From NCBI GenBank assembly GCA_963749085.1, contig CAVVLG010000002.1, forward strand, positions 445,863-509,862: a DNA stretch of 64,000 nucleotides. The letters are read 5' to 3'. Positions 5,768-35,089 of the stretch are shown in pieces. Positions within the stretch are counted from its first letter, which is position 1, and each line of letters begins with the position of its first letter. The notes beneath the pieces are model-generated. The model searched no databases. It was not told where the DNA came from and was given only the letters and a program-made list of their open reading frames with translations. This DNA comes from Candidatus Adlerbacteria bacterium (GTDB taxonomy: Bacteria > Patescibacteriota > Minisyncoccia > Phycocordibacterales > SBAW01). A program made the position numbers and the translations under genes.

Positions 5768-5772
5768 CCCTT

Positions 5773-19109: not shown

Positions 19110-20557
19110 TCTTTGCGGGGGAAAAGGTTATCCGGTTTTTTATTTTTAATAACCGCCTGTCTAATTTTTTCTGAAGTCTCAGGCATGAACACTTGAAGCT
19201 CATTCGCCAGCAAATACACTTCTTTGACTAAATCCGTTATGAGTAGAATGCCTTTTTTCTTGTCTTCTTTCACGAGTTTGAAGGGCTGGTGAAGCTGTAT
19301 GGTTTGATCGATCTTTTGTATGTACGACCACAAAATGTTCATCACCCCCGGTATATCAAACGTCTCCATCTCTCGGTGATAGTCTATACGCGGATATACG
19401 TTGCCACTCACGTCAACCGGCCCGGTAAGATTGCCTTCGGCCATTTTCATGACGCGACTCACGACATTACCTAAACCATTGGCGAGTTCCCCGTTATAAA
19501 TCTTCTTAAACCCTTCGCGCGTGATATCGCCATCTTCAAATGGCGAGATATGTCGTGCGAGGTAGTAGCGCACTGCATCGCTACCATACTCCCCCAAGAG
19601 ATCAAAGGGATCAATGACATTCCCTAACGTTTTGCTCATTTTTTTGCCCCCCGAGGTAATAAAACCATGAACCAAAAGGGATTTAGGCAGCGGCAGCCTA
19701 GCCGAGAGCAGCATCCCCGGCCAAATCGCGGCATGAAAACGCAAAATATCTTTGCCGATGACGTGCATCCTCATTTCAGCACCTTCCCAAAACTCCTTAT
19801 ACAGTTGATCGTCCGATCTACCGAAACCGAGCGCGGTAATATAATTTGCCAGTGCATCACACCATACATACATAATCTGCGAGTCATCGCCAGGAACCGG
19901 AACGCCCAAACCGGCAGGCCAATCGCGTTTCCGCGGCCGCGAAAAACTCACGTCCTCCAGACCCTCCGAAATAAAGGACAAAATTTCGTGCCTGCGAGTT
20001 GCGGGAGCAATGAGAAGTTCGTCTGTTTCTATTTTTTCTCTTATAACGTCGGAGTATTTTGAGAGGCGGAAAAAATAATTCTCTTCTTTTATTCGCTCGG
20101 GAACGGTGCCGTGCTCAGGACATTTACCGTCAACTAATTCTTTCTCGGTAATAAACGACTCATGACCGACACAATAGAGTCCTTCATACTCCTTTTTATA
20201 AATATCGCCCGCTGCATCGAGTTTTTTCCACAGAGCAATTGCACCAGGCCAGTGTATGGCGCGGTCGGTTGTACGAACAAATTGGTCGTAGGAAATGTTA
20301 AGGGCCGTGTACAAATCAGAAAAATTATTGACTATCTCGTCAAGAAATACGAGCGGATCTTTTTTTTCTTTTTTTGCGGCATCTACCATTTTTTGTGTAT
20401 TCTCATCCGAACCGGTCAAAAAATACGTCTTGCGCGTTAGACGATGATAGCGAACAAGAATGTCGCTTAAGGTTGTGGTATAGGCATGCCCCAAATGCAA
20501 CTTAGCATTGGGATAAAAAATCGGCGTGGTGAGATAAAAAGTTTTGTTATCGGACAT
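19106..20557 (-). CDS. metG: Methionyl-tRNA synthetase (compact form)
   Basis: HLGHAY (HIGH) and KMSKTLGN (KMSKS) motifs; 483 aa. Confidence 0.95.
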   Translation of the reverse strand: MSDNKTFYLTTPIFYPNAKLHLGHAYTTTLSDILVRYHRLTRKTYFLTGSDENTQKMVDAAKKEKKDPLVFLDEIVNNFSDLYTALNISYDQFVRTTDRAIHWPGAIALWKKLDAAGDIYKKEYEGLYCVGHESFITEKELVDGKCPEHGTVPERIKEENYFFRLSKYSDVIREKIETDELLIAPATRRHEILSFISEGLEDVSFSRPRKRDWPAGLGVPVPGDDSQIMYVWCDALANYITALGFGRSDDQLYKEFWEGAEMRMHVIGKDILRFHAAIWPGMLLSARLPLPKSLLVHGFITSGGKKMSKTLGNVIDPFDLLGEYGSDAVRYYLARHISPFEDGDITREGFKKIYNGELANGLGNVVSRVMKMAEGNLTGPVDVSGNVYPRIDYHREMETFDIPGVMNILWSYIQKIDQTIQLHQPFKLVKEDKKKGILLITDLVKEVYLLANELQVFMPETSEKIRQAVIKNKKPDNLFPRKE

Positions 20558-20566
20558 GCATTGAAA

Positions 20567-21676
20567 CTACTTGGCTTCGCCGTCGGGTGCAAGCCCTTGG
20601 CGAGCAAGCGCGCGCGTCTTTTCCTTGTCGATATCGGAGACAAATTCTTGAATAGCACCTGCGATAGGCACTGACAAAAGAACGCCCAAAAATCCCACTA
20701 GTTGGAAACCAACCAGGAGGGCAAGAATAACGAGAAGCGGCGGTACGCCGACCACTTTTTTGACGACCACGGGATAAATAAGATTGGCTTCAAATTGCTG
20801 AACAATAATGAAAAGCCCTGCAACCAAAAGTGCTTCGGTGAGTCCGGCATTCGCAAGCGCGACGGCAATGGCAGGTATTGCGGCAAGAAACTGTCCGAAA
20901 ACGGGGATAAGCTCAAAGACCGCTGCCAAAACGGCCAAAAGGAGGGCATATTTAACACCTAGAATAACGAGACCGAGGTAGAGCAGCACACCAACGATGA
21001 CCGCAAGCACAATCTGTCCTTGCATCCACTTGCCTATTTTCACCTGAGAGCGCTTCCACAAATGGAGCACATATGCCTGCTCCTTGATAGGAGTGACCAG
21101 ACGAAGAAAATCATCGACCCCCGTCTCCTGGACCGAAAAATAAAAAGAAAAAACGACTACCAGCACGAAGGATACGATGCCACCGAAAAAGGCGGCCACC
21201 GTGGTGAAAACCCCGCCAGTTGAATTAGTGAGGGTGGTTGAAATATTTTGCAATAAGTCCGCCGAGTTGAAGGTCTGAGCTACCGTGCCCCACGGCAAGA
21301 GACCGTGCGTGGTATCGGATATATTGAGCGAGGAAAGAGTTTGGGGAAGCTGCTGGAGGAACGTGGCTGCATCGTTAAGCACCGGCGGTATAAAGAAAAA
21401 CAGTACGGCAAAAAATACAATCGCAACTATAAGATAGACCAGTATTACTGATACGAGCCGTGGTATACGCTGTTTCGTAAAAAAACGAATTGCTGGCTCC
21501 ATCGCCGACGCAATGACCACCCCCGTGAGGAGGACCAATACAATGTCGCGCAAATACCACAACAATCCCACCAGTAGCACAAAAAGTACCGCAGTGATTA
21601 TGGTACCCGGCGTTACAGTTACCGAGATGTTTCGATCGGCCATACGCACATGATAGCACAATGCCTCAACCGCCAA
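20567..21676 (-). CDS. AI-2E family transporter (PerM/UPF0118-like permease)
   Basis: 369 aa, 8 TM segments, typical AI-2E topology and C-terminal conserved block. Confidence 0.75.
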   Translation of the reverse strand: MAVEALCYHVRMADRNISVTVTPGTIITAVLFVLLVGLLWYLRDIVLVLLTGVVIASAMEPAIRFFTKQRIPRLVSVILVYLIVAIVFFAVLFFFIPPVLNDAATFLQQLPQTLSSLNISDTTHGLLPWGTVAQTFNSADLLQNISTTLTNSTGGVFTTVAAFFGGIVSFVLVVVFSFYFSVQETGVDDFLRLVTPIKEQAYVLHLWKRSQVKIGKWMQGQIVLAVIVGVLLYLGLVILGVKYALLLAVLAAVFELIPVFGQFLAAIPAIAVALANAGLTEALLVAGLFIIVQQFEANLIYPVVVKKVVGVPPLLVILALLVGFQLVGFLGVLLSVPIAGAIQEFVSDIDKEKTRALARQGLAPDGEAK

Positions 21677-21983
21677 TTTCGAGAAGTACTATGGCGATAC
21701 CGGCCGCGATAAGTCCGAGTATTTCCACAAATCCGATTCGCTCCTTAAAAAAGAGCCAGCCGACGATAGCCAGAATCGTAATATTAAAAAGTACCAGAAG
21801 TGCCGAGGCGACCTCAATATTCTCAAACTTATAGCTTTCAATAAGCGGAATGAGTCCCCCTATATACAGAAGCATACCAAGCCCATAGAGATACGGATTG
21901 TAATGCCCTGCATAATATTTAAAAACGATGTCGCCAAGTGTGAGCAATACTCCCCCGCCCAATAAAAGTACTGTAACGTACAT
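21666..21983 (-). CDS. Small 4-TM membrane protein (SMR/DMT-like)
   Basis: 105 aa, four hydrophobic helices; overlaps the next gene by 11 nt. Confidence 0.5.
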   Translation of the reverse strand: MYVTVLLLGGGVLLTLGDIVFKYYAGHYNPYLYGLGMLLYIGGLIPLIESYKFENIEVASALLVLFNITILAIVGWLFFKERIGFVEILGLIAAGIAIVLLEIGG

Positions 21984-21989
21984 ATAGTT

Positions 21990-23306
21990 TTATGCTATTT
22001 TTTCCTTGAGCAAAGCCTCGAGATCGGCTGTGGCGACGCGTTCCTGTTGCCCTGAATCGCGATAGCGCAAGGTTACGGTGTCTTTAAGTTCGGGTTTCTC
22101 GCCGAGCGTGTCGAAGTCTATAGTGATGCAAAAGGGCGTTCCTATCTCATCTTGCCGACGATAGCGTTTGCCGATATTACCGTTATCGTCCCACATAATG
22201 TGTGGGATTTCTTTTTTAAGCGATTCGTAAATGTCGCGTGCCTTAGCAACAAGCTCAGGTTTATTTTTGAGCAACGGAAATACGGCCGCTTTGATCGGGG
22301 CAACCACAGGCTTAAATTTCAGATACACACGGGGCTCTCCGCCGAGTTCATCTTCGGTATATGCAGAGGCAAGCACTGCAAGCACGGTGCGGCCCAAACC
22401 AAAGGTCGGCTCGATAACATGGGGAATAAATTTCGCACCATCTTCATCAACATAGGCAAGGTCAACTCCTGATTTTTCTGTGTGTTGAGAAAGATCAAAA
22501 TCCGTACGGTAGGCAAGACCGTAAAGTTCTTTGCGTCCAAAAGGAAAGTCGAACTCAAAATCAATCGTGCGTTTGCTGTAGTGGGCCCGTTCTCCATCAG
22601 GTACTTCAAGCTCGTGCACTTGTTCTTTGTAAATACCTATTGATTCCAGCCATGCCCACATCTCAACTCTCCAATACTCAAACCATTTCTGCCACTCCGA
22701 CTCTTTAACAAAATATTCAAACTCCATGAGATCAAATTCCCTCACTCGAAAAATGAAGTCGCGCGGCGCGATTTCATTGCGAAACGCTCTCCCGCTTTGC
22801 GCAATGCCAAAGGGGAGCTTGGGATGGAAGGAATCGATAATGTTTTTAAAATTGACGAACATACCTTGCGCTATCTCCCCACGCAAATAGCCGCGCGAGC
22901 TGCCTGCAGTGCTCCCCATGTCAATTGGGAACAGTAAGTTGAACATTTTCGGTTCGCCCAAGGTTCCTCCACATTCAGGACACGCGTGTCCTTCTATATG
23001 ATCGGCACGAAAACGTCGTTTACATTTTTTACATTCAACCATAGGATCTGCAAAACCTTCGAGGTGCCCGCTGGCCGCCCACACTGCCTCAGGCATGACG
23101 ACGCTAGAATCGAGTCCGTACATATCATCACGGCTTTCGACAAAGTTTCGCCACCATAGTTGCTCTATATTTTTTTTGAGCGAAGTGCCAAGTGGCCCGT
23201 AATCCCAGGTACCCGCAAGACCGCCATAAATTTCAGAGCCTTGATAGATGAACCCGCGCCGCTTGCACAGTGACACAATTTTTTCCATTAAGTCATTTTT
23301 TTCCAT
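21990..23306 (-). CDS. glyQS: Glycyl-tRNA synthetase (dimeric class II type)
   Basis: MEKIVSLCKRRGFIYQGSEIYGGLAGTWDYGPLG... class II motifs and anticodon-binding C-terminus. Confidence 0.93.
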   Translation of the reverse strand: MEKNDLMEKIVSLCKRRGFIYQGSEIYGGLAGTWDYGPLGTSLKKNIEQLWWRNFVESRDDMYGLDSSVVMPEAVWAASGHLEGFADPMVECKKCKRRFRADHIEGHACPECGGTLGEPKMFNLLFPIDMGSTAGSSRGYLRGEIAQGMFVNFKNIIDSFHPKLPFGIAQSGRAFRNEIAPRDFIFRVREFDLMEFEYFVKESEWQKWFEYWRVEMWAWLESIGIYKEQVHELEVPDGERAHYSKRTIDFEFDFPFGRKELYGLAYRTDFDLSQHTEKSGVDLAYVDEDGAKFIPHVIEPTFGLGRTVLAVLASAYTEDELGGEPRVYLKFKPVVAPIKAAVFPLLKNKPELVAKARDIYESLKKEIPHIMWDDNGNIGKRYRRQDEIGTPFCITIDFDTLGEKPELKDTVTLRYRDSGQQERVATADLEALLKEKIA

Positions 23307-23310
23307 ATAG

Positions 23311-25257
23311 TTAATTCGGTGCGACTACCCCCATCGCGCTCTGAAACCCGGTATCACTGGTGAGATCGATCGTGGGTGCCTGTGCAGTGGCATTTACACT
23401 GACTTGTGCAAAACGATCCTGGCCTGACAACTCAGTATCTCCGGTAAGCTCAGGCACCGAGCCAACCTGGCTGGTGCTCGGGGTCAACACTACCTGAAAG
23501 TTGGCTGTTTGTGCAGGTGAACTATACCCCACGCCGGGACTGACGTTGCCGAGGTTCCAGGTCACCGTCCGGTTGCCGTCATCATAACTTATACCGCTTG
23601 CTCCGGTGGAGGCGTAGGTCACGTATGGTGGTAGTACAGTAGACACCGTGGTATTGGCGAGAGGATTTGAAGAGTTGGTCACCGTCCAGGCTATGGTGTA
23701 GGAGGTATTTTGTCCGGGCACCGGGGGCATCGGCCCCGTGTTAGTTATGGGCCCCGTAAAGTGGAGCGCTTGCGCAGTGAGCGATACGACCGACGCCAGC
23801 GAGACAGTGGCCGAAGCGGCAGAAGTCACTTGCTGGGACGTCCCCGAGCCGCCCACTTCGTTGCCAGTAACACTAAGGTTAAGCGTAATAGTAGGATTCG
23901 TGACCAAGACGCTTCCAGAGCCGGCCGGCAGTGTGTTGAAGCTAAACTCGAGGGTTCCTGTCTGTCCTGGTTGTATGGTGGCAAGCGACGGATCTTGGCT
24001 GCTTCCCCACGTAATAGTGTTATCCTGCGATTGGTAGAAACCTGTTTGCGAGGAAATGGAAGTGGGATCGAGCGCCGGCCCCGACAACGATAGGCTGAAC
24101 TGAGCGTTCGATACCGCAGTCGGCAGATTGTTCTGCCAGGTGATGGCACCTTGCAAAGACGCTCCAGAAGTAACCGATATGTTTGGACCAGCCTGTCCGT
24201 TAACTGAAATGGTACCGGTGATAAACGGCTGACTGAGCGTCACGGTCACCGGGACGCTGAGGAGTGGCACGTCGACCGTGGTGTCGGTCGGATCGGCATT
24301 TGAACCCGAAAGAAATGTAAAGACGAGCGATTGGCCGTTTTGGCCCGCTATCGAACCCAGAAGATTAATAACCTGGGATGCGCCGGGCGCCAAAGTACCC
24401 AAGTTCCAGAACGTCCCGCCCGCTTGTGCCGCAGGATTGGAACTTGCGAATGAATAGCCGAACGGGTACTCCCCCTGTACAACGACACCATCAAGCGGCG
24501 TGGTCGCATTATTTTCGACCGTTATCGCTATCGGGAACTGCTGGCCCACAATGGCCTGGGTCGGTGCGTTTATGGAAAGCGAAATCGGGGAGGAACCGAT
24601 GACGAATTGCGCTTGGGCCTGTTTTTCGAAAATAGCGTTGGAGCCGGTGAGACTATACTCCAACGTCACACTGACGGTCTCCTGGGCGCCTTCCTGACCA
24701 TAAAAGAGCGCGTCCGCAGTTTGTGTAACGGACTGCCCTGCATTTATAGTGCCGACGGATTGCTGATTGTTCGAAAGCGTTTGCGTGGGATCAGAGGGAT
24801 CGCGCGTGCCAGCGGGATACGTGATGAGGAGATTGACCAGATTGAGCGAGGAAGTGTTGCGATTGTCTATTACGATTTGGAACGAAGTGTCTTTGCCGCT
24901 ATCGACGAGAGAGGGTATGACCACTTGCAGGTCGATATTTTGTGGAGAGATGAGATTGTTACCAATAAAGAATACGTATGCGGCGACGCCGGTCGCGCAC
25001 ACAAAGAACAGCAGTGACCAAATAAGGAATTTCCCGGCAAGTGACATCTTCTTTTTAGGCTCAAACTGCGCAAGCGGCGGTCTTTTTGGGCCAGAAGGTT
25101 TGGCCTTTTCTTCCTCCTGCCACGACACAGGCGCTTCGGGCCGCTCGCTTGAGAGCGGTGTGCGTATGTCGTTCATGGGGTTCCCCTCTTTTTGTCGTGA
25201 ATAGAGCTTACGTTTGAGCTCTTCTATATCATCCTTATCCTCCGAAGGCATGCACAA
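23311..25257 (-). CDS. Large membrane-anchored surface protein with Ser/Thr/Asn-rich DUF11/CARDB-like repeats
   Basis: 648 aa: cytoplasmic N-terminus, one TM helix (FLIWSLLFFVCATGVAAYVFF), then repetitive beta-rich extracellular region. Confidence 0.7.
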   Translation of the reverse strand: MCMPSEDKDDIEELKRKLYSRQKEGNPMNDIRTPLSSERPEAPVSWQEEEKAKPSGPKRPPLAQFEPKKKMSLAGKFLIWSLLFFVCATGVAAYVFFIGNNLISPQNIDLQVVIPSLVDSGKDTSFQIVIDNRNTSSLNLVNLLITYPAGTRDPSDPTQTLSNNQQSVGTINAGQSVTQTADALFYGQEGAQETVSVTLEYSLTGSNAIFEKQAQAQFVIGSSPISLSINAPTQAIVGQQFPIAITVENNATTPLDGVVVQGEYPFGYSFASSNPAAQAGGTFWNLGTLAPGASQVINLLGSIAGQNGQSLVFTFLSGSNADPTDTTVDVPLLSVPVTVTLSQPFITGTISVNGQAGPNISVTSGASLQGAITWQNNLPTAVSNAQFSLSLSGPALDPTSISSQTGFYQSQDNTITWGSSQDPSLATIQPGQTGTLEFSFNTLPAGSGSVLVTNPTITLNLSVTGNEVGGSGTSQQVTSAASATVSLASVVSLTAQALHFTGPITNTGPMPPVPGQNTSYTIAWTVTNSSNPLANTTVSTVLPPYVTYASTGASGISYDDGNRTVTWNLGNVSPGVGYSSPAQTANFQVVLTPSTSQVGSVPELTGDTELSGQDRFAQVSVNATAQAPTIDLTSDTGFQSAMGVVAPN

Positions 25258-25269
25258 AAGTATAGCACT

Positions 25270-25851
25270 TTAGAGGCCCGTGGCGCCGAGAGATTCGTTA
25301 ATGGTGCGCACCAAAAGACTCCGTGAACGCGCCGCGGCGGCGGCCAATTCTAGAGAAAAAAAGCTCTCTGATATGAATGGCTCGAGTTCGGGACGCTTGG
25401 GCAGATATCCTAAATGTGAGAGAATGCGCAGAACGATCACGCACTCTATAGCTTCGGCATCGGCATCATTGAGAGCCTGAGCCAAAGACATGAGGCCTTC
25501 CGTGACACTTCGATAAAGATTCGCCGTAGGTTCCTCCCCTTGGAGAAGACGGAGGAGTAATTTCAGCACTTGGCCGGCGCGTCTGCGACGTGGCGCCGAA
25601 AGCGGTATGCATTCTCTGGAAACAGTTTCAGCACCGGTAAGCTTCCATTCGTGTTTGCCGCGTACGAAACTGAATCGTCCACGAGTCAGCGGTTCAAGAC
25701 CGTAGCGCAATTTTGAGCGCTCAAGCCGGGTGCTTTTGGCCGATGCTTTTAGCAGACCAAACTCCACGGTGAGCACGGTGAGGAGACTGCTGGCCTCGCC
25801 CGTGGCGCGCTTCCCCAACACCAGTCCTTCGGTAATATAAATTTTATGCAT
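25270..25851 (-). CDS. recO: DNA repair protein RecO
   Basis: N-terminal OB fold (KIYITEGLVLGKRATGEASSLLTVLTVEFGLLKASAKSTR...); start trimmed to the second Met. Confidence 0.7.
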   Translation of the reverse strand: MHKIYITEGLVLGKRATGEASSLLTVLTVEFGLLKASAKSTRLERSKLRYGLEPLTRGRFSFVRGKHEWKLTGAETVSRECIPLSAPRRRRAGQVLKLLLRLLQGEEPTANLYRSVTEGLMSLAQALNDADAEAIECVIVLRILSHLGYLPKRPELEPFISESFFSLELAAAAARSRSLLVRTINESLGATGL

Positions 25852-28800
25852 CACTCGTTTGCGATTCGACCTCAAGTGAGCCAAGGCCAGCCTGCTCGAT
25901 GATTTCAGCCCTAAATTTCTCCGCTATGCGTGCTTCCTCTACAGCAAATACTTTCAGTGTATAGGTCGGCCTGTCAATTATCTGCATCTTTTGCTCTTTG
26001 CGCCACTCTTGTATGCGACGGACGATGTCGCGTACCAGACCTTCTTCTTTTAACTCCAGGGTAAGCGCGGTATCGAGCCATACTTTCTCCTCAAGCACCG
26101 TGTCTTCAACGATAGATTTGACGTTTACCTCCTCGACAATAAGTTGCTGGAGTTCAGGACGTATCGCCAGCATGCGAACTTTAAGGGTGGCGAGCGGCTG
26201 ACGGATCTTGATGCCTGCTTTCTCGCGCATATGTAGTGCCTCAGAGGCAATAGTTCTAGTTTCGCGCATGTCAGCCACCAGAGGCAGATCAATAGGAAGA
26301 ATGTCCGGCCAGTCGCACAGATGAACGCTTTCTTTATCATCTGCGCTTCTCATGGCCCTAAATAGCTCCTCAGCAAAAAACGGCATGACCGGTGCCATTA
26401 CTTTAGATAGCGTATAAAGCACGAATCGAAGCGTCTTTAGGGCATCATCTTTATCTACCTGTTTGGTCTTAAACCGATCGCGCGAGCGGCGCAGATACCA
26501 GGTCGAGAGATCGTCGATAAAATCCGCAAGCGGCCGCGTCGCAGCATCCAGTTCATAGCGCTCGAATCCTTCGGTCGTCTTCTGTATCAACTCGCCGAGT
26601 CTGGAAAGTATCCAACGATCCAGAATATGAACTGATGAAGCGGAGATTTCTAGACTTGGTTTTTTAGAATCATACAGCTCATAAAAACTACGAACGTTAC
26701 TTAAACGCATCAACAATTTTTTCGATACCTCCTCCACCCCGCGCGCTGAGAAGCGCAAGTCCTCTCCGCGTATGACTGAAGAGGAAAGGAGGTAATAACG
26801 GAGGGCGTCAGCGCTGAACCGCTCGACCAGCTCCATAGGATCGGGATAATTCTTCAGCTTTTTGGACATCTTCCGGCCATCCTCGGCGAGCACGAGCCCG
26901 TTGGTTACCACCGCCTTATAAGGGCTCCTTCCAAACAACCCTACCCCAAGGACAATGAGCGAGTAGAACCACCCGCGGGTCTGGTCGATGCTTTCGGCAA
27001 TAAAATCCGCTGGATATCCTTTAGGAAATAGACCCAAAAGACGCTTGGGATTAAATGAGTGCTTGTCGTTGAATGGATAATGATTACTCGCAAAAGGCAT
27101 CGAGCCGGACTCAAACCAACAGTCAAACACATCAGGCACCCGTTGCCATATACCGTTTATTGAATCGCCAAGCGCGATATCATCGATGTACGGGCGGTGC
27201 AAATCAAGTTCGTAGTTAGCATTGTGCGGAAAGGGAACAAAATGAAGCCTCATATACTGACCTTTGTCGAGGTAATTATCTTGTTTCCTCAGATGTTTTA
27301 AATCGGGAAGTGAAGTCCTATCCGCAACACGAGCCAAACACCAGGCAGGGTCTCCATGGGTCACCATGAGAATATTTTTATTAGTATAACGTCGCTCTAT
27401 ATCGAAAAGAAATTCTGCAACCCGACTACGCAGTTGCATAAGTGTCTCTGCGCCTCCCGGAGACTTCACAAAGTGATCACTAAAAGAAGGAAATTCGTCA
27501 TGCCATTTCTCTAGAGATGCTCCACTGAAGGTCCCCAATCGACGTTCCCCTAGACGCTCATCGGTCATTACTACTGAGGGAGGGAGCCCGAAGGTAGCTT
27601 GTGCAATAGCAGCAGTTTCCTGGGCGCGAGCGAGGGGAGAAACAACTATGACGTCAATGTTTACTTCCCTCTTCAGTTGCTCAACACTTCTTTTAATGTC
27701 AATTTTTCCTTTTTCGGTTAAATGATTCTCGATGACATTGTCTGAACTTACAAAATTCTCGATGTTACTGCGCGCCTCTCCGTGCCGTAATATAAAGTAT
27801 GTGTTCCCGCTTCGGCGAACCATCGAGAGCAATTCATTGACTGAGCTGACTATTTTTTGTTCTTTCGTTTTACTGTGGTGCCACACTGGCAGAGGAGCTC
27901 CCCAAAAACGACTGCGCGAAATCGCCCAATCGGGCGCGGTCTCAAGCCCTTTGCGGAATCGTCCCGCTCCAACATATCGGGGTACCCAGCGAATTTTTTC
28001 GTTCTCTGAAATAAGTTTGTTTTTTATTTTTTGTACACTGACGAACCACGAATTGGCCGCCCAATTGAGAAGTGGGGTCTCGCAGCGCCAGCAATGCGGG
28101 TATGCGTGTTTTATTTTTTCCTCTGTAAACAGGAGCCCATGCACACGTAACCACTCGGCAATTTTTTGATCGGTCTCCTTCGGGTTGCCTTTCGGTTTGA
28201 CTGGAAGGTGTGCGAAGTCGGTGACGGTCGCGATGAATTTACCTTCATCGGTCACGTGATGAATGAGCGGTATTTTTTCCTTTTGCGCGAGTGTAAGATC
28301 ATCCTCTCCAAACACCGGAGCAATGTGCACTATACCGGTGCCTTCGGTGAGCGTTACGAACGGTGCGGCATAGACCCGCCATGCGTGCGTCTTGTGTTTG
28401 TGGAGTTCATCTTTAAAGTAAGCAAACGGCGGCTCATAGCGCTTGCCTACCAACTCTTTGCCTTTGAACTCTTCGACTATATCTGGAGAAGAAAGAGCGG
28501 GAATCTTTTCTAGAAGGTCCTTGGCGACGATGACATATGCATCCCCTGCCTTTACTTTCACATAGTTGGCATCAGCGTTTACTGCGACGGCAGTGTTGCC
28601 TGGAAGAGTCCACGGCGTGGTTGTCCATATAAGAAGAGCGGTTTGCGGCTCATCCACAAGCGGCAACCTCACAGTGACGGCAATATCATCGATATCCTTA
28701 TACCCTTGCGCCACCTCGAAATTCGAGAGGGTCGTCCCGCAGCGCGGACACAGTTGCATGGACTTGAACCCCTCGTAGATGAACCCGCGGTCGTAGAGAT

Positions 28801-29329
28801 TCTTGAAAGCCCACCATACTGACTCGGTATAGCTCGCATCCATGGTGCGGTAGTCATTTTCCATATCAATCCAGCGCCCGAAACGCGGAATGATCCTTCT
28901 CCAATCATCCGCATAGCGCAAAACAGCATTCCTCGCCGCGGCATTAAACTTCTCTATCCCGAACTTCTCGATATCGCGCTTGGTCTTGATGCCAAGTTCC
29001 TGCTCTATCTGGTTCTCCAAGGGCAACCCGTGACAGTCCCACCCCCAGCGGCGTTCAACGTGAAAGCCCCGCATGGTTTGATAACGCGGTATTGCATCTT
29101 TAAGAGCACTCTGGAGCAAATGTCCATAATGGGGCAGTCCTGTTGCGAACGGCGGTCCATCATAAAAGATATAGTCGCCTTGTGGTGAAGGCTTATCAAG
29201 CGATTTCTCAAAGATTTTCTCGCGATTCCAAAATTCAAGAATTTCCTCCTCTCGATGTGCTGCTGGGGATTTGGCCAAGTACGGAGGTACATCCCGCTCC
29301 TCCCCACCCTGTTTGAGGTCATCAACCAT
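25844..29329 (-). CDS. ileS: Isoleucyl-tRNA synthetase (type 2) carrying an inserted histidine-phosphatase (PGAM-like) domain
   Basis: HYGH (HIGH), editing CP1, KMSKKLKN (KMSKS). Between PVWHHS and LHRPYIDD there are about 220 aa instead of about 45, including FILRHGEARSN...VVSPLARAQETA...MVTHGD, the signature of the histidine phosphatase superfamily. Confidence 0.92.
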   Translation of the reverse strand: MVDDLKQGGEERDVPPYLAKSPAAHREEEILEFWNREKIFEKSLDKPSPQGDYIFYDGPPFATGLPHYGHLLQSALKDAIPRYQTMRGFHVERRWGWDCHGLPLENQIEQELGIKTKRDIEKFGIEKFNAAARNAVLRYADDWRRIIPRFGRWIDMENDYRTMDASYTESVWWAFKNLYDRGFIYEGFKSMQLCPRCGTTLSNFEVAQGYKDIDDIAVTVRLPLVDEPQTALLIWTTTPWTLPGNTAVAVNADANYVKVKAGDAYVIVAKDLLEKIPALSSPDIVEEFKGKELVGKRYEPPFAYFKDELHKHKTHAWRVYAAPFVTLTEGTGIVHIAPVFGEDDLTLAQKEKIPLIHHVTDEGKFIATVTDFAHLPVKPKGNPKETDQKIAEWLRVHGLLFTEEKIKHAYPHCWRCETPLLNWAANSWFVSVQKIKNKLISENEKIRWVPRYVGAGRFRKGLETAPDWAISRSRFWGAPLPVWHHSKTKEQKIVSSVNELLSMVRRSGNTYFILRHGEARSNIENFVSSDNVIENHLTEKGKIDIKRSVEQLKREVNIDVIVVSPLARAQETAAIAQATFGLPPSVVMTDERLGERRLGTFSGASLEKWHDEFPSFSDHFVKSPGGAETLMQLRSRVAEFLFDIERRYTNKNILMVTHGDPAWCLARVADRTSLPDLKHLRKQDNYLDKGQYMRLHFVPFPHNANYELDLHRPYIDDIALGDSINGIWQRVPDVFDCWFESGSMPFASNHYPFNDKHSFNPKRLLGLFPKGYPADFIAESIDQTRGWFYSLIVLGVGLFGRSPYKAVVTNGLVLAEDGRKMSKKLKNYPDPMELVERFSADALRYYLLSSSVIRGEDLRFSARGVEEVSKKLLMRLSNVRSFYELYDSKKPSLEISASSVHILDRWILSRLGELIQKTTEGFERYELDAATRPLADFIDDLSTWYLRRSRDRFKTKQVDKDDALKTLRFVLYTLSKVMAPVMPFFAEELFRAMRSADDKESVHLCDWPDILPIDLPLVADMRETRTIASEALHMREKAGIKIRQPLATLKVRMLAIRPELQQLIVEEVNVKSIVEDTVLEEKVWLDTALTLELKEEGLVRDIVRRIQEWRKEQKMQIIDRPTYTLKVFAVEEARIAEKFRAEIIEQAGLGSLEVESQTSDA

Positions 29330-29343
29330 ATTTAAAAACTATA

Positions 29344-31017
29344 CTACATCTCCTCAGGAGCGGGGATGCCGAGTACTTGCAAACCTTTTGACAACGTGTG
29401 CTCAACCGCGCTTGCAAGCAAAAGACCGTAAGACGGATGTGCTCCACCAATGACGCGTTCGCTTGCATACCAACTATTAAATGCCGAGGCAAGTTCCGTA
29501 AGATAGGTGGTAACGTAGTGAGGATCAAGTTCCCGCGCCGCGCGGGCGAGCACTTCCGGATAGTGCACGAGCATGCGCTCAGGTATAGTGGGAGTATTCG
29601 GTGCATCGGCAATGGAAATTCTAATTCCTGCTGCTTTGGCGGCCTGTACCAGCGAGTGAGCCCGTGTGTGTGCGTATTGCAGATACGGTCCTGAGTCTCC
29701 CTCAAGCGAAAGTGATTTTTCAGGATCAAATATAATATCCTTTCCTCTTCCCTGCTTGAGGACCGCGTATTTAATCGCGCCAACCGCCACTTGCTCGGCA
29801 ATCAAATCCGGACGTTTTAACTCGCGCAAAGACATTTTACCTTTCGCCACCTCCCTCAAATCCATCAAAAGAGACTCGCCGCTTATAACATTACCCTTAC
29901 GAGAAGACATTCTTCCAGTGGTCAGCCGCAGAAACCCGTGTGCGATATGCCGGAGCGTTCTTCCGTCAGTTTTTTCGGGAAAGACTTTCTTGACAGCAGC
30001 AAACACTACCTTAAAGAAGGCTTCTTGTTCAAGCCCGGTCACCGTTATCGAAGTTTCGAAGTACGGGAACTTTTCGCTTTTGAGCTCAAAAAGGCCTATT
30101 TCTTTGGCTTCGTATGCGGGGAGACCTTGCGAGTTGAGAAACACCCGGGTGTGGAGTCCCTCCTGTTCGCCACGATACACAACCGCTCCTTCGCTCTCTT
30201 CGAACACGCTTCCGGTATGTTTTTGCACTATGTCTTTGCCCAACGGTCCGGAATCACTTTCAAAAAACTCCGCATCAAACTTTGTGCCTAACCGCTCGCA
30301 CAATGCATCGAGATGTCTGCGCGACGTCTCCACACCTTTCTTACGCAACCCAGACCAAACCGCATTTTTATTTATGTAGAGCGCTTCGTTTATTTCCTCG
30401 ATTTCCTTTTTTTGCGATACATTGGTTTCATAGGCTTCGTTGCCAGCGACATAGGCCTGACCGAGTTGTACAATATCCGCGGGATCGAGATTATTTTTCC
30501 ACAAGCCCCAGACGCCTTTTGCAACCGTCAGACCGATATCAGAAGGGTAATTCAATCGTTTCACTCCTGCCCCCGCATGTTCAAGAACTCGGGTGATAGA
30601 CTCGCCCAAAATATTACCTATAAGGTTGCCTATATGCAGTGGTTTGAAAAGATTAGGACTTGTGTATTCGACTAACACGATTTTTCCTTCATATATGTCA
30701 GAATCTCCCCAGGCTTTATTACTCGCTGCAGCTTGTATCCCCTCTATAGTTATTTCTCTCGAAAGAAAAAAATTAACAAAGCCTCCCATTGGAACCATGT
30801 TATCTACCCCGACAATTTTCCCCCTTAGGTACCCCACTAACTCTTGAGCAAGATGATCAGGATTCTTCTTTAAAAGTTGAGCGGCAGAAAACGCCGCATT
30901 TGTCGCGTAGTCACCGTGCTCCAATGAATCAGGGCGATCAACACTAAATGACACTTCGGGGGCACCGAGCGAAATAAGTTCCTCCTTTATCGCTGCATGT
31001 ATGTCGTCTCTGATCAT
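29344..31017 (-). CDS. argS: Arginyl-tRNA synthetase
   Basis: N-terminal Arg-tRNA add-1 domain, HIGNLIGNILGES (HIGH-like), DALK anticodon-binding domain. Confidence 0.93.
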   Translation of the reverse strand: MIRDDIHAAIKEELISLGAPEVSFSVDRPDSLEHGDYATNAAFSAAQLLKKNPDHLAQELVGYLRGKIVGVDNMVPMGGFVNFFLSREITIEGIQAAASNKAWGDSDIYEGKIVLVEYTSPNLFKPLHIGNLIGNILGESITRVLEHAGAGVKRLNYPSDIGLTVAKGVWGLWKNNLDPADIVQLGQAYVAGNEAYETNVSQKKEIEEINEALYINKNAVWSGLRKKGVETSRRHLDALCERLGTKFDAEFFESDSGPLGKDIVQKHTGSVFEESEGAVVYRGEQEGLHTRVFLNSQGLPAYEAKEIGLFELKSEKFPYFETSITVTGLEQEAFFKVVFAAVKKVFPEKTDGRTLRHIAHGFLRLTTGRMSSRKGNVISGESLLMDLREVAKGKMSLRELKRPDLIAEQVAVGAIKYAVLKQGRGKDIIFDPEKSLSLEGDSGPYLQYAHTRAHSLVQAAKAAGIRISIADAPNTPTIPERMLVHYPEVLARAARELDPHYVTTYLTELASAFNSWYASERVIGGAHPSYGLLLASAVEHTLSKGLQVLGIPAPEEM

Positions 31018-31637
31018 GATTGCAAAATATCTTCAACCATTTTTTTTACGTCCTTATACACTTCCTCGATTGTACGATTGGCATCTATTACCTTAGCCTG
31101 CGGGAGAGTTTTCGCGACTTCTAAAAAACCTTGCCGAACACGCTCATGAAGCTCAAGGGGCATCTTCTCCATAGTGTCGAGTACTTTCCCCGCCAACTTT
31201 TGCCGTTGTTGGCCGACCTCCACCGGAACGTCAAGCACGATCGCAAGATCAAGTGGACACCCGCGATAGATAAAATCGAGGCACTCCTGCATCAAAGAAG
31301 TGAGTTCCAAATATTGCCTACCATAGAGTTGGTATGCATAGGTAGAGAGCCACGAACGGTTGGAGATTACGTTTTTGCCGCTTTGGAGGGCAGGACGAAC
31401 GACTTCTTCAATATGTTGGGCGCGATCGGCCAAAACTAAAAAAAATTCCGCGGGGATTGAAACCGATCCCGCAGCCTCATGAAAAAGTGCTTGGCGAATA
31501 TATTGTCCAAGCGGCGTACCGCCTGTTTCGCGCGTATAAACGAACTGTGGTCCAGAAAAATCTTTTTTTAGTAGTTTGATCTGCGTGTCCTTCCCGGCAC
31601 CATCCCCACCCTCAATGACGAGAAACTTTCCATGCAT
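31014..31637 (-). CDS. tmk: Thymidylate kinase
   Basis: MHGKFLVIEGGDGAGKDTQ P-loop, DRY/LID motifs. Confidence 0.92.
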   Translation of the reverse strand: MHGKFLVIEGGDGAGKDTQIKLLKKDFSGPQFVYTRETGGTPLGQYIRQALFHEAAGSVSIPAEFFLVLADRAQHIEEVVRPALQSGKNVISNRSWLSTYAYQLYGRQYLELTSLMQECLDFIYRGCPLDLAIVLDVPVEVGQQRQKLAGKVLDTMEKMPLELHERVRQGFLEVAKTLPQAKVIDANRTIEEVYKDVKKMVEDILQS

Positions 31638-31660
31638 TGAGTTACTGTAACATGACGATA

Positions 31661-32773
31661 TTAAAGTGTCGTTGTCTTAAATTGCGGCGTGGTTGAGCTC
31701 AAAACCGCAGTAAACGAAATGCGACCGATAAGCTGGCCGTCTGCCGTTTCGACGTCACAACGCCACTGCCCTGGCGTCATCACCACGTAGCTATAGCCGC
31801 GATAGCCCCCCGCACGGCCTCCTACGAGCGAAAAGGATACGCGAAAGACGGTGTTCCAGGTTTTTGTCGCATCGTCATACTGTTCCCAACGGTGATAGAT
31901 GGGGGTATCGAAGTTAGGAGGCGCATATACCGCCGAGAAACAGTACGCGGTTTGTCCCTCTCCGTAGGTATAGGTTGTGCTAGTGTCCTGCCAAAATTCG
32001 TACCATGGAGGCGGTTCATACGTGGCGGTGTAATTACCTGCTACGTCGCGAGAAAGCGAGTGGTAGACGCCTATATCCTTAAGCGAGAGCGGTACGGGTG
32101 GAATGATGTTCAAAAAATAAAGGACGTTAAAAAATACAAAGATTGATATAACTATGATGTACGCTTCCCAGAGAAGTCTTCTCTCGCGTTTACCTCGCGA
32201 CACGGCAATACGCAGCATGATGAAAAACGGGATCATCAACACCAGGCTTATACCGCCAGTGATTAAAAAAACTTCCGGACCTATCGCGTGCAATATAAAA
32301 GTTGGGATGGAGATAGTGAGGTAGGAAAAAAGAAGAGTGTAATAGATTGCGATATTGAAGCGCAATTGTGCATAGCGCGATCGCATGTACTCGTTCCCGA
32401 AAACCATGCATAGGAGCAAACCGACGAATATGAGATCGCCTGCTGGCGTACCGCTTTTGCCATAGAGCACCAGTAAATTGCTCGCAAGACCGCCGAAACA
32501 AAATTGCAGTATGAGAAGGAGAGCGAGCGGCTCGACGGGATGACCTCCCACGAGCTCCCGTCTGCTGCGCACATTGAAGAGAATAATTATGGTTCCAGAT
32601 GTCAGAAGATACGTGCATAGAAGAATGTTATCGATGATATTGTTAGGCGTCTTTGCGAGAAATAGATCAAAAATAAAACCCGTACACAACGCGCCCACGC
32701 CGAGCCAATGCTCGTAGCGCTTCCAAAAACTGACCGCGCGGGAGAAAAGCGGTTTCATGACCTTATTGTACAA
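31661..32773 (-). CDS. Multi-pass membrane protein with C-terminal extracytoplasmic beta domain (DUF2157/DUF2914-like)
   Basis: 370 aa; about 9 TM helices then a soluble Tyr/Thr-rich domain. Confidence 0.6.
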   Translation of the reverse strand: MYNKVMKPLFSRAVSFWKRYEHWLGVGALCTGFIFDLFLAKTPNNIIDNILLCTYLLTSGTIIILFNVRSRRELVGGHPVEPLALLLILQFCFGGLASNLLVLYGKSGTPAGDLIFVGLLLCMVFGNEYMRSRYAQLRFNIAIYYTLLFSYLTISIPTFILHAIGPEVFLITGGISLVLMIPFFIMLRIAVSRGKRERRLLWEAYIIVISIFVFFNVLYFLNIIPPVPLSLKDIGVYHSLSRDVAGNYTATYEPPPWYEFWQDTSTTYTYGEGQTAYCFSAVYAPPNFDTPIYHRWEQYDDATKTWNTVFRVSFSLVGGRAGGYRGYSYVVMTPGQWRCDVETADGQLIGRISFTAVLSSTTPQFKTTTL

Positions 32774-32776
32774 GCA

Positions 32777-34057
32777 TTATGTGAATGATTCCGGAATGGG
32801 AAAAGCGGCACATAACTTTTTTATTTCCTGATGAATAGCGTCGAGCCTTGCCTCATCAGAGCGATTCTTCAGCGCCTCTATCATAAGCTCGGCGACACGC
32901 TCACATTCTCTTTCCGTAAACCCGCGAGTAGTTATTGCCGGTGTGCCAAAACGGATGCCCGAGGGATCCATCGGCTTTCGGGTATCGTCAGCTATGGCAT
33001 TTTTGTTGAGTGTAATGCCGACGCGATCAAGCACTTCTTCGGCCTCCTTTCCCGCTATCCCAAGCGAGCCAAACACATCAGCCAAAATAAGGTGGTTACT
33101 TGTGCCGCCGGCTATCATGCGCACGTCATGTGCACTGAACACTTTCTCCATTGCTTTCGCGTTCTTGAGAATTTTTGCGGCATACACTTTGAACAAAGGA
33201 TGCAAAGCTTCGCCGAAAGCCACCGCCTTAGCCGCGATGACATGCATCAAGGGACCCCCTTGCAGGCCCGGGAAGACCGCTTTGTCTATTTTTTTCGCGA
33301 TTTCTTCATTGTCACGGGTGAGAATGAGCCCCCCGCGCGGTCCGCGCAGGGTCTTGTGCGTGGTCGAGGTCATCACATCAAATCCGAAATCAAAAGGGTT
33401 TTTGGCTACATGACCGGCAATGAGCCCTGCGATGTGCGCAACGTCTATAACCGAGTATGCGCCGACTTCTTTGGCGATGGAGACGAATTTCGCATAATCA
33501 AGCTCGCGGGAATAGGCAGAAAAGCCGGCCAAAATTATCTTGGGTTTTTCTCTCTTAGCGACCTCCCGCATCTCCTCGTAGTCTATCTCTCCTGTCTCAA
33601 CGTTCTTCATCTTATAGCGAACGAAGTTGAAAAACTTGGTGATATAGGTGACCGGATGGCCATGCGTTAAGTGTCCGCCGTGGCTTAAATCCATACCCAA
33701 CACGGTGTCGTGGGGTTCAAGCAACGCGAAGTACATCGCGATATTGGCGTTCGCTCCAGAGTGCGGCTGTACGTTGGCGAACTGGGCGCCGAATAACTTT
33801 TTCGCGCGGTTTATCGCCAGCACCTCCGCCTCGTCGGTATAGGTCTGACCTCCGTAGTAGCGTCTGCCGGGGTATCCTTCGGAATATTTATTGGTGAGTA
33901 TGGAGCCCTGCGCCTCACGCACAGCTTTCGAAACGTAATTTTCGGAGGGAATGAGTTCCAGTCCTTCGCGTTCTCGAGTCTCCTCACCTTCAAGCGTTTC
34001 AAAAACTTCTGTGTCTTGTTTTTTTATAGATTCGTAGAGATTCATGGCAGTTTCCAT
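32777..34057 (-). CDS. glyA: Serine hydroxymethyltransferase
   Basis: ...GGHLTHGHPV..., PLP-lysine region TTHKTLRGPRGG. Confidence 0.96.
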   Translation of the reverse strand: METAMNLYESIKKQDTEVFETLEGEETREREGLELIPSENYVSKAVREAQGSILTNKYSEGYPGRRYYGGQTYTDEAEVLAINRAKKLFGAQFANVQPHSGANANIAMYFALLEPHDTVLGMDLSHGGHLTHGHPVTYITKFFNFVRYKMKNVETGEIDYEEMREVAKREKPKIILAGFSAYSRELDYAKFVSIAKEVGAYSVIDVAHIAGLIAGHVAKNPFDFGFDVMTSTTHKTLRGPRGGLILTRDNEEIAKKIDKAVFPGLQGGPLMHVIAAKAVAFGEALHPLFKVYAAKILKNAKAMEKVFSAHDVRMIAGGTSNHLILADVFGSLGIAGKEAEEVLDRVGITLNKNAIADDTRKPMDPSGIRFGTPAITTRGFTERECERVAELMIEALKNRSDEARLDAIHQEIKKLCAAFPIPESFT

Positions 34058-34108
34058 TACCTAAATAATCGGCCATGTGAATCGCTAGATCATACTTTTT
34101 AACTCCTA

Positions 34109-35089
34109 CTATACTTTAATTTTCCCACTTGGTTTATTATCGAGACTACGAAAACCGGCGACGGTAAACTCGGCTTTAATCGTATCATGCGGCTCATAGC
34201 CCTCTCGGGTCACATACGCGGGGCGGAAAGTCTCAAGATTTGTAACTACATCATTGATAGAGACTTTAGGAAATGGCTTCGGTTCGCGAGTGAGTTGTTC
34301 TTTAATGGCATCGACATGATCTTCGTAAAAATGTACGTCACCAAAGGTATGTATAAACTCTCCCGCATCCCGTCCAATTATTTTTGCTACCACCAGACAT
34401 AAAAGTGCATAGCTCGCGATATTAAATGGTACCCCAAGAAAAATATCGGCACTACGCTGATAAAGGTGGAGAGAGAGCTTGCCATGTTTGATATTGAATT
34501 GATACATGTTGTGACAAATAGGAAAATGACTAACCTCCTCCGGTTTTGCCATTGAATAGAGATACTCCGGATTCCATGAAGTCACAATCGCGTTATGACA
34601 AGAAGGATCGGTAATGAGCTCGTTTACCGCCCAAGCAAGCTGATCTATACTTCGGCCATCTTTTGCTGGCCAATGTCGCCACATGTCACCATAAATGTTC
34701 GGGAGTGTACCGTGTTCTCTCGAAAATGTGCCGTTAGTCTTTATTTTTTCAATAAATTCTTCCTTAGTCATTTCAGGCCATTCCCCTTGCTTTGCATATT
34801 CCATGTACGTCCGATATGGATAGTCATCCCAAATATGAACGTCGTTATCGACTAAGTATTTGATATTATTCTGCCCAGATAAAAACCAATAGAGTTCATG
34901 CAGTACACCCTTCCAATAAACCCGCTTGGTAGTGAGGAGAGGAAATCCTTCTGAAAGATCAAACCGGATTTGCTTGCCAAAAAGACCGACGGTCGTCTTA
35001 CCATGACCCGCATCAACCTGCTGGTCTCCCTTCTGTAAGAGTTCGCTCATTAAATCCAAATACTGATATTCAGGATGTTTTTTATTCAT
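34109..35089 (-). CDS. thyA: Thymidylate synthase (ThyA type)
   Basis: FPLLTTKRVYWKGVLHELYWFLSG...PCH..QF motifs. Confidence 0.95.
   Translation of the reverse strand: MNKKHPEYQYLDLMSELLQKGDQQVDAGHGKTTVGLFGKQIRFDLSEGFPLLTTKRVYWKGVLHELYWFLSGQNNIKYLVDNDVHIWDDYPYRTYMEYAKQGEWPEMTKEEFIEKIKTNGTFSREHGTLPNIYGDMWRHWPAKDGRSIDQLAWAVNELITDPSCHNAIVTSWNPEYLYSMAKPEEVSHFPICHNMYQFNIKHGKLSLHLYQRSADIFLGVPFNIASYALLCLVVAKIIGRDAGEFIHTFGDVHFYEDHVDAIKEQLTREPKPFPKVSINDVVTNLETFRPAYVTREGYEPHDTIKAEFTVAGFRSLDNKPSGKIKV

Follow-up and report, generated by a model that had tools for sequence, protein, structure and literature searches.

Aminoacyl-tRNA synthetases are among the most conserved enzymes, and domains added to them have repeatedly revealed new biology in editing, regulation and signalling. 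Enzyme domains inside or attached to synthetases are known, the CP1 editing domain being the classic case. Enzymes of the histidine phosphatase superfamily, for their part, share a chemistry in which a histidine attacks a phosphomonoester and forms a phospho-histidine that is then hydrolysed. In isoleucyl-tRNA synthetase (IleRS, encoded by ileS), the segment CP3 lies between the motifs W-G-x-P-x-P-x-W and D-x-W-F-x-S-G (residues 473-534 in Candida IleRS and 459-526 in yeast IleRS; PMC7191050; PMC7955072); it holds a zinc-binding motif in Thermus thermophilus, and its topology varies among IleRS types (PMC7191050). In a catalogue of class I insertion modules, CP3 is entered as a zinc finger rich in Cys, 25-77 residues long, to which no function is assigned (PMC10810186). 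Here we describe an ileS gene from a Candidatus Adlerbacteria bacterium, located in a 64,000-nucleotide stretch (hereafter the window; GenBank assembly GCA_963749085.1, contig CAVVLG010000002.1, positions 445,863 to 509,862), in which the tip of CP3 is occupied by a predicted histidine phosphatase, together with relatives in which the same phosphatase is encoded by a separate gene directly upstream of ileS.

A histidine phosphatase domain is embedded in the CP3 segment of IleRS

Alignment to canonical type-2 IleS delimits an insertion of residues 503-707, which places about 205 residues where the tip of the canonical CP3 zinc knuckle has about 10. In pairwise alignments, residues 502 and 708 of the window protein pair with residues 478 and 488 of the T. 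thermophilus enzyme (1ile), and residues 503 and 708 with residues 491 and 498 of yeast IleRS (8wnd); the insert was also delimited against two uninserted relatives (L002 and L004, described below). An earlier note on this DNA had claimed an in-frame histidine-phosphatase insertion at 27230-27817, which corresponds to residues 505-700 and falls within these limits, while its figure of about 45 residues for the uninserted spacing has to be lowered to about 29, the W...DLH distance in uninserted relatives. A Pfam scan assigned residues 512-681 to His_Phos_1 (PF00300) at 101.7 bits (gathering score 21.7; E=5.5e-29), a match that spans profile positions 2-170 of 194 and splits the tRNA-synt_1 match in two. 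The motifs quoted in that note were all found, namely PLPVWHHS (residues 479-486), RHGEARSN (515-522), VVSPLARAQETA (562-573), THGD (657-660) and LHRPYIDD (710-717), and DVFDCWFESGS was also located at residues 733-743.

When the insert was searched alone, its best solved relative was the broad-specificity phosphatase PhoE (1ebb/1h2e; E=5e-11 over about 157 residues), and a phosphoserine phosphatase (4ij5) that resembles cofactor-dependent phosphoglycerate mutase (dPGM) and CobC were also among the best. The alignment to PhoE pairs the RHG motif, the Arg of S-x-x-R-A-x-E-T-A, the Glu of D-E-R-L-x-E and the His of T-H-G with PhoE catalytic positions, which bears out the assignment of these motifs to the histidine phosphatase superfamily. 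An AlphaFold model built with a 120-sequence alignment had a mean predicted local distance difference test (pLDDT) score of 87.9 and scores of 93-98 over the insert, where beta-strands (residues 510-515, 560-563, 587-589 and 652-657) alternate with helices (539-555, 567-580 and 630-647); a single-sequence model of the whole protein (pLDDT 33) was set aside. Free-standing versions of the domain in relatives are complete proteins of 186-205 aa. Together, the Pfam match, the PhoE alignment, the predicted fold and these free-standing relatives support the claim that the insert is a complete, independently folding enzymatic domain and not a linker expansion. A C-terminal linker of about 12 residues (F-x-P-x-P-H/Y-N-x-x-x-E) is common to all embedded forms and missing from free-standing ones; among 120 relatives, F697 and P701 are invariant and H702, N703 and E707 are conserved in at least 90%.

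The dPGM-specific residues, as in E. coli GpmA, are an Arg and a Tyr after the catalytic Glu (E-R-x-Y), the Asn of H-G-N and basic residues of the cap. The dPGM cap carries a second phosphate-binding site, in which the basic residues bind the second phosphate or a carboxylate, and dPGMs are proteins of about 250 aa with a C-terminal tail that is lacking in the insert (about 170-205 aa). Conservation of the domain was assessed in an alignment of 161 full-length insert-bearing relatives, a separate set of 120 relatives serving for the IleRS motifs and linkers. In this alignment the position of the mutase Arg (596) holds V, I or T and is Arg in only 8/161 sequences, that of the Tyr (598) holds F, L or V, and that of the H-G-N Asn (660) is not conserved (D, N, G, A, Y or T). 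Equivalog profiles for dPGM all scored the insert below their cutoffs (archaeal dPGM NF038349, 73.7 against 225; NF002339, 35 against 316; NF010718, 31.1 against 366; NF002901 for GpmB, 27.6 against 261). On the strength of residue conservation and profile scores, the identity of phosphoglycerate mutase was rejected. Phosphoglycerate mutase has been reported absent in several shallow Parcubacteria clades, possibly via divergence (PMC7304191), and an insert that is the missing dPGM would fill this gap in lower glycolysis; dPGM also belongs to the superfamily, and NF038349 gave a weak match of 73.7 bits. Yet the profile scores lie far below the cutoffs, the defining Arg and Asn are not maintained, the domain has neither the dPGM size nor its tail, and the cap is deleted in about 27/161 sequences, which makes this explanation very improbable. 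Profiles of other phosphatase families also stayed below their cutoffs for the insert (CobC TIGR03162, 53 against 162.9; PspA NF045917, 46.7 against 350; SixA TIGR00249, 34.9 against 74.5). By its sequence features, the insert is a predicted small PhoE/CobC-like branch-1 histidine phosphatase and not a mutase; the 'PGAM-like' label of the earlier note holds at the level of the superfamily only, and its 'phosphatase' is the apt part of the name.

Conserved catalytic residues and the fate of the zinc knuckle

Among the 161 relatives, pairwise identity is 43% for the insert against 60% for the synthetase core, and the catalytic residues listed in Table 1 are the most conserved positions of this otherwise fast-evolving domain. 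The combination of rapid evolution with unchanging catalytic residues suggests a working enzyme and not a spacer. The cap subdomain, a stretch of about 40 residues that follows the catalytic Glu, is shortened to about 10-12 residues in about 27/161 embedded domains; these are about 170 aa in size (e.g., the Adlerbacteria-type P0114, P0122 and P0130), and their active site should be open.

The insert starts about 25 residues past the linker that joins CP2 to CP3, which is equivalent to yeast 453-ARDWNVSRNRYWG-465. In yeast IleRS this linker lines the pocket for the tRNA CCA end, where reveromycin A replaces the CCA end (PMC7955072). Uninserted relatives keep four Cys (W-x-C-x-x-C ... C-x-x-C) around a short canonical loop, and the zinc-knuckle Cys are also kept by 25/161 insert-bearing enzymes. 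In the subclade of the window all four zinc-ligand Cys are replaced (HHSKTK and GDSING; residues 484-502 and 708-730, positions 27824-27880 and 27140-27208). Read from these alignments, the domain occupies the tip of the knuckle, and loss of the zinc site came later in the lineage of the window, after the domain had been acquired.

The loss of these ligands in the subclade, together with the structural variability of CP3 among IleRS types (PMC7191050), is what might be expected of a pseudoenzyme that merely stands in for the lost knuckle, for example as a tRNA- or protein-binding surface. Such a structural replacement would not, however, require that catalytic residues be the best-kept positions of the domain, nor does it suit the knuckle that is still present in 25 of the insert-bearing enzymes, or the free-standing form, which holds the same catalytic residue set. 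We therefore give this explanation very little credence.

The host enzyme is an intact type-2 IleRS

The earlier note had described the 1161-aa IleS as intact, with its HIGH motif, editing domain and KMSKS motif, and this description stood up in every part. The ORF comprises 1161 codons with no internal stops, the protein scores 857.6 bits against the TIGR00392 ileS equivalog profile (cutoff 621.4), and all three motifs could be located (Table 1). Its best matches in the Protein Data Bank (PDB) were yeast IleRS (8wnd), T. thermophilus IleRS (1ile) and Priestia IleRS2 (8c8u/8c8v), with E values of about 1e-197 to 1e-205, whereas type-1 chains (S. aureus 1ffy, P. megaterium IleRS1 and H. pylori) matched more weakly (E 1e-71 to 1e-89). 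A Foldseek search of the PDB with the whole-protein model gave the same order, type-2 or eukaryote-like IleRS ahead of type-1; its matches were IleRS, ValRS and LeuRS only, the search being dominated by the IleRS scaffold.

The part before the insert contains the first half of the Rossmann fold, the CP core, the CP1 editing domain, CP2 and the first strand of CP3, and the part after it contains the second CP3 strand, the second Rossmann-fold half, KMSKS and the anticodon-binding and C-terminal domains. Against the isolated Thermus editing domain 1wk8, the match covers residues 209-412 (E=4.3e-31), and 1udz was matched too. Across the 120 relatives, H67, G69 and H70 of the HIGH signature are at least 90% conserved, and both K820, M821 and K823 of the KMSKS signature and the editing-domain residues T236, T237, T238, W240, T241, N245, H335 and D344 are invariant. 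With its catalytic and editing motifs intact, the ORF is predicted to encode a working type-2 IleRS.

The embedded phosphatase is a clade-wide feature

The window protein itself is present in the public protein collection, and all of the 120 listed closest IleS relatives (58-67% identity, 1096-1240 aa) carry both PF00133 and PF00300. Named relatives among the matches listed belong to Paceibacterota, Minisyncoccia, Adlerbacteria, Nomurabacteria or the 'Patescibacteria group'. An exhaustive HMMER search against 1.84 billion cluster representatives recovered 75 representatives at E<=1e-30 and 646 at E<=1e-10, and most of the top matches span both IleRS flanks. A scan of the Genome Taxonomy Database (GTDB; one genome per species) gave at least 600 candidate stretches, and a relative is encoded in at least 588 of them. 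The best 80 of these loci, which include Kaiser-, Wolfe- and Lloydbacteria and the published Parcubacteria genome RAAC4_OD1_1, have the domain colinear inside ileS in 80/80 cases, with argS upstream and recO and a DUF11 protein gene downstream, such that the argS-ileS-recO-DUF11 core is syntenic across the clade. The survey of related genomes that the earlier note had called for thus shows that the insertion is not peculiar to this genome: the embedded phosphatase is a clade-wide feature, neither a single-genome oddity nor an assembly artefact.

Several relatives depart from the common arrangement at CP3. Two tandem His_Phos domains occupy the CP3 position of the IleS proteins P0283 (1419 aa) and P0277 (1056 aa, partial). 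P0231 (1161 aa) is ValRS-like, with a valS match over its N-terminal 417 residues. In this protein WGHRIPVWY leads straight into His_Phos, of which there are at least three domains in tandem; P0231 looks like a paralogous synthetase that took up the domain in parallel at its homologous CP3 site, and it could be a misassembly. In the IleS protein P0199 (1066 aa), a segment resembling a REP-associated tyrosine transposase (residues 326-472) precedes a His_Phos domain (680-854) and a GNAT domain (921-1065). Considering the GNAT domain of P0199 and the curated IleRS family NF040702 (see the final section), CP3 may be a general docking site for extra enzymes. The embedded phosphatase demonstrates that the CP3 zinc knuckle can accommodate an enzyme of 200 residues, which is of use for engineering.

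At one locus (L001, positions 1937-7869 of ENA ERZ25039540 contig_54002), genes for a TnpB-like protein (HTH_OrfB_IS605) and Cas1 lie between argS and ileS. The ileS gene of this locus is split into four ORFs, the His_Phos piece among them, consistent with either an error-rich long-read assembly or a disrupted locus.

In relatives the same phosphatase is encoded directly upstream of ileS

A second architecture was found in a 112-kb JGI contig (L002), where argS is followed by a gene for a 186-aa His_Phos protein and then by ileS (5892-8780, 962 aa), recO and a DUF11-like gene, and where the phosphatase stop overlaps the ileS start by 4 nt. Two further loci (L004 and L006) have the same gene order. 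The IleS proteins of L002 and L004 have no insert and a canonical CP3 loop. The free protein corresponds to the whole domain, and embedded forms consist of the same domain plus the C-terminal linker.

A metagenome scan seeded with the free-standing form yielded 80 loci, comprising 51 with a separate ORF abutting ileS, 19 embedded forms, 1 apparent N-terminal fusion and 9 without a match to the ileS N-terminus. The contigs of these 9 were short or truncated, except for two (L138 and L163) with downstream sequence. In 40 of the 48 measurable loci, the ileS ATG lies between -10 and +24 nt from the phosphatase stop. Across the Parcubacteria/Paceibacteria group, the same phosphatase accompanies IleRS as a conserved partner, whether from within CP3 or from a gene of its own directly upstream of ileS.

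Three candidates for free-standing forms among the protein matches were discarded. Two short hits (P0003 and P0005) are pieces of ileS genes split into several ORFs, reflecting an error-rich assembly or a pseudogene, and a third (P0014) is an unrelated His_Phos protein in a context of glycosyltransferase and glycerate-kinase genes.

The module has moved between lineages and architectures

Trees of the IleS core (neighbour-joining only, insert removed, 775 columns, 30 bootstraps) interleave the embedded and free architectures, with 6-8 switches by parsimony in 30/30 bootstraps, and the N- or C-terminal part of IleS alone gave 7-8 switches. Distinctive IleS signatures cross the two architectures in the same way. 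WGLALPIFEC...DVGNPWLDAG is found in embedded P0216 and in free L154 and L147, and WGTPLPIW in embedded L159 and L089 and in free L094 and L129; WASAMPIW...DTWFDSG of embedded L044 and L039 is partly matched by each of free L110 (WANTIPVW...DTWFDSG) and free L090 (WASAMPVW...DCWFESG). Because these signatures cross architectures, the interleaving is not mere tree noise.

Comparisons of the domain itself point in the same direction. The embedded domain of L089 and the free protein of L087 share 68% identity over 184 residues with IleS cores at p=0.49, and the free protein of L154 and the embedded domain of L122 share 68% identity over 194 residues with IleS cores at p=0.58; cores of such free/embedded pairs are 42-51% identical. 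In vertically related pairs, domain p can be as high as about 0.48 even at core p<0.25. Judging from these comparisons, the history of the domain is incongruent with that of the IleS core, and the module appears to have moved between lineages and arrangements more than once. As the CP3 loop of uninserted genes has the canonical length, uninserted ileS is presumably ancestral; the neighbour-joining tree of the domain was too star-like to show the direction of change.

Base composition was also considered. GC content at third codon positions (GC3) in the window is 0.405 for the insert versus 0.542 for the remainder of the gene. GC1 and GC2 are the same in both, and a sliding window reaches its GC3 minimum on the insert. 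However, a smaller GC3 dip (-0.03 to -0.04) recurs systematically in loci of either architecture, and for this reason the dip is weak evidence for recent transfer. At the ends of the insert there were no junction repeats, only short chance-like matches.

Incongruent history and lowered GC3 are also what an assembly chimera, a frameshifted fusion or a selfish element such as a spliced-out intein might leave behind. For an intein, the Pfam scan of the window protein shows no Hint or intein family; the N-terminal junction (...LLS/MVRRSGN) is without the intein Cys/Ser; and in the C-terminal linker 'PHN' is followed by A, E, Q or K, with no conserved Cys, Ser or Thr, and lies about 5 residues ahead of the junction. 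The absent Hint domain and the junction residues led us to reject an intein or selfish element. Furthermore, many projects have produced independent assemblies with this in-frame architecture, and the GC3 dip, being small, systematic in both architectures and unaccompanied by junction repeats, adds little in favour of an artefact, to which we assign hardly any probability at all.

Possible function of the phosphatase beside IleRS

Mechanistically, H516 would attack a phosphomonoester held by R515, R568, N522 and H658, E595 would protonate the leaving group, and the phospho-histidine would then be hydrolysed, all while the phosphatase is tethered beside the synthetase. We propose that both arrangements persist because the phosphatase acts together with IleRS and not in unrelated metabolism. 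Its target would be IleRS itself or something bound by IleRS, for instance a phosphorylated tRNA end or another ligand. That the cap varies or is missing suggests that the substrate would be positioned largely by the synthetase and not by the phosphatase's own pocket.

Several considerations point to such a functional link. Insertion into an internal loop of an essential enzyme would be a costly route to mere co-expression, the linkage to ileS has outlasted transfers and rearrangements, translation of the unfused gene is coupled to that of ileS, and the cap, which normally shapes specificity, can be dispensed with, in line with a substrate that is presented by the synthetase. That an active phosphatase domain resides in a functional IleRS as its conserved partner is, in our judgement, very likely, and the mutase, pseudoenzyme and intein or artefact explanations are each contradicted by a direct test. 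Between functional coupling to IleRS and an independent metabolic role, the balance is roughly even. Taken as a whole, the reading of an active, conserved phosphatase that is also functionally coupled to IleRS would seem moderately probable.

Five observations weigh against this reading or limit it. First, the number and direction of the architecture switches are approximate, the trees being neighbour-joining only. Second, all embedded forms have identical junction linkers, which is hard to square with repeated independent insertion. Third, at two loci the free gene has no ileS nearby, one of them (L138) keeping argS upstream and the other (L163) having neither neighbour. Fourth, the genes may have stayed adjacent in part because they were inherited within a compact housekeeping operon (thyA, glyA, tmk, argS, ileS, recO, ..., metG). 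Fifth, argS neighbours the free-standing gene as closely as ileS does.

An alternative is that the domain is an independent metabolic phosphatase for small molecules (a sugar phosphate, a nucleotide, phosphoserine or similar), unrelated in its chemistry to aminoacylation, that in these tiny genomes rides on or next to an essential, constitutively expressed gene. Fusion of unrelated enzymes is common in reduced genomes, the closest solved relatives (PhoE, phosphoserine phosphatase and CobC) have broad-specificity or metabolic roles, the weak NCBIfam matches are to the same kinds of phosphatase, and the locus is a compact housekeeping operon. Selection for co-expression, however, predicts a terminal fusion or loose linkage and not insertion into an internal loop in hundreds of species, and it does not predict that linkage specifically to ileS is kept while the module is exchanged across lineages and architectures. 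A cap that defines the substrate would also not be expected to vary or be deleted in a specific metabolic enzyme. We consider a purely metabolic role unlikely, though with an appreciable chance of being right.

By analogy with conflict systems, the module could instead be a mobile repair or immunity phosphatase that strips a phosphate or pyrophosphate, placed by a toxin, from the 3' end of tRNA(Ile) or from IleRS (e.g., its KMSKS loop). It would do so at the CP3 tip beside the CCA pocket, or as a partner protein from the upstream gene, and the toxin would be a kinase or pyrophosphokinase of phage, competitor or host. Such a role would account for fast evolution with invariant chemistry, the dispensable cap, tandem copies, lateral spread and spread between architectures, and the ValRS-like case; the features that would fit a conflict module are the two copies in P0283 and P0277, the three copies and ValRS-like host of P0231, and the GNAT neighbour in P0199. 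To our knowledge, no toxin of this kind is aimed at IleRS or tRNA(Ile), and we regard this role as distinctly doubtful.

Returning to the functional link with IleRS, an apparently active phosphatase inside an essential synthetase across a large uncultured radiation, with an unfused twin, argues for an undescribed phosphate-dependent step tied to isoleucine charging or tRNA(Ile). The natural pair of fused and unfused forms is suited to testing the protein interaction.

Features and gene neighbourhood of the window

Coordinates of the features discussed here are collected in Table 1. On the same strand, ileS belongs to a long co-directional housekeeping cluster (19106-35089, minus strand) that is rich in synthetases and comprises thyA, glyA (serine hydroxymethyltransferase), a gene for a DUF2914 protein, tmk, argS, ileS, recO, a gene for a 648-aa DUF11 protein, a class II aminoacyl-tRNA synthetase gene with an HGTP anticodon domain, an AI-2E transporter gene and metG. 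Read from its TTG start (25884), the recO-like ORF shares 41 nt with the end of ileS (25844-25884), and its true start may be an internal Met a few codons on. Three tRNA genes were found in the window, all on the minus strand, for His-GTG (45944-46016), Leu-GAG (51466-51551) and Val-TAC (59306-59379); no tRNA-Ile gene lies within the 64 kb.

Table 1. Positions of ileS, its parts and motifs, the embedded phosphatase and the neighbouring genes in the window
Feature	Residues	Positions	Strand	Evidence
ileS ORF, type-2 IleRS with embedded phosphatase	1-1161	25844..29329	-	1161 aa; TIGR00392 and PDB matches
IleRS N-terminal part	1-502	27824..29329	-	tRNA-synt_1 match 30-502; residues 26-503 align to yeast/Thermus IleRS
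HYGH, class I 'HIGH' signature	67-70	29120..29131	-	sequence
TTTPWTLPGN, Thr-rich motif of the editing site	236-245	28595..28624	-	sequence
CP2-CP3 linker APDWAISRSRFWG	465-477	27899..27937	-	equivalent to the yeast linker
Inserted histidine phosphatase module, with N-linker MVRRSGN and C-linker	503-707	27209..27823	-	alignments, Pfam PF00300, pLDDT
RHG: R515, catalytic nucleophile H516, G517	515-517	27779..27787	-	R515 and H516 161/161; G517 154/161; aligns to PhoE RHG
Phosphate-pocket Asn	N522	27764..27766	-	152/161
Second phosphate-binding Arg (in SPLARAQETA)	R568	27626..27628	-	161/161
Putative general acid	E595	27545..27547	-	154 Glu and 6 Asp of 161; aligns to Glu of PhoE 'REIHLG'
Second catalytic His (THGD)	H658	27356..27358	-	160/161
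C-linker FVPFPHNANYE, returns the chain to CP3	697-707	27209..27241	-	alignments
IleRS C-terminal part	708-1161	25844..27208	-	residues 708-1074 align to yeast IleRS; Anticodon_1 and DUF5915 matches
KMSKK, class I 'KMSKS' signature	820-824	26858..26872	-	sequence
argS, arginyl-tRNA synthetase, upstream neighbour		29344..31017	-	Pfam; synteny
recO-like gene, downstream neighbour		25270..25884	-	Pfam RecO_N and RecO_C; synteny

Comparison with known systems

Full-text literature searches, with most subscription journals outside their coverage, found no paper that describes a histidine phosphatase inside or next to IleRS. In databases, precomputed Pfam matches reveal the architecture, and NCBI names relatives (e.g., HUD02754.1, our P0030) only 'class I tRNA ligase family protein' and not isoleucine--tRNA ligase. 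Metabolic reconstructions could miscount the PF00300 domain embedded in IleRS as phosphoglycerate mutase. To the first observation of the insertion, the analysis adds its clade-wide spread, the unfused alternative architecture and the incongruent, exchange-prone history of the module.

A curated precedent for an IleRS with an extra enzyme domain is NCBIfam NF040702 (ileS_w_GNAT), in which that domain is an acetyltransferase and not a phosphatase; the window protein scores 323.3 bits against the cutoff of 1999 for this family, and the Pfam scan shows no GNAT family in it. The best NCBIfam match to the insert itself is the bifunctional RNase H/acid phosphatase PRK07238 (76 bits over residues 503-672 against a cutoff of 326), of which the insert is thus not a member. 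As here, a PGAM-like phosphatase is joined in that family to an enzyme acting on nucleic acid, but the fusion is terminal (RNase H at the N-terminus, phosphatase at the C-terminus) and not internal. PRK07238 is of the Rv2228c type.

HipA-type kinases phosphorylate synthetases. The toxSAS toxins pyrophosphorylate tRNA CCA ends, and some of them select particular tRNAs (PMC11559606; 10.1101/2021.04.30.441581). The likeness of these systems to the locus described here is conceptual only and lies in the fact that phosphate on tRNA 3' ends or on synthetases blocks aminoacylation; their known antidotes are small alarmone hydrolases or antitoxins and not histidine phosphatases.

The two components of the window protein have close described counterparts. 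With canonical type-2 IleRS (1ile, Priestia megaterium 8c8v and yeast 8wnd) it has in common the scaffold, the HIGH and KMSKS motifs, the CP1 editing domain and the C-terminal domains; the difference lies in CP3, which is canonically 25-77 aa and a zinc finger in Thermus (PMC7191050; PMC10810186), whereas the CP3 tip of the window protein is longer by about 205 residues and all four Cys are gone. With PhoE/YhfR of Geobacillus stearothermophilus (1ebb/1h2e), the insert shares a size of about 200 aa and the Arg-His...Arg...Glu...His arrangement. PhoE is free-standing and the insert, in contrast, is embedded in a synthetase loop or encoded beside ileS, with a cap that is variable or deleted.

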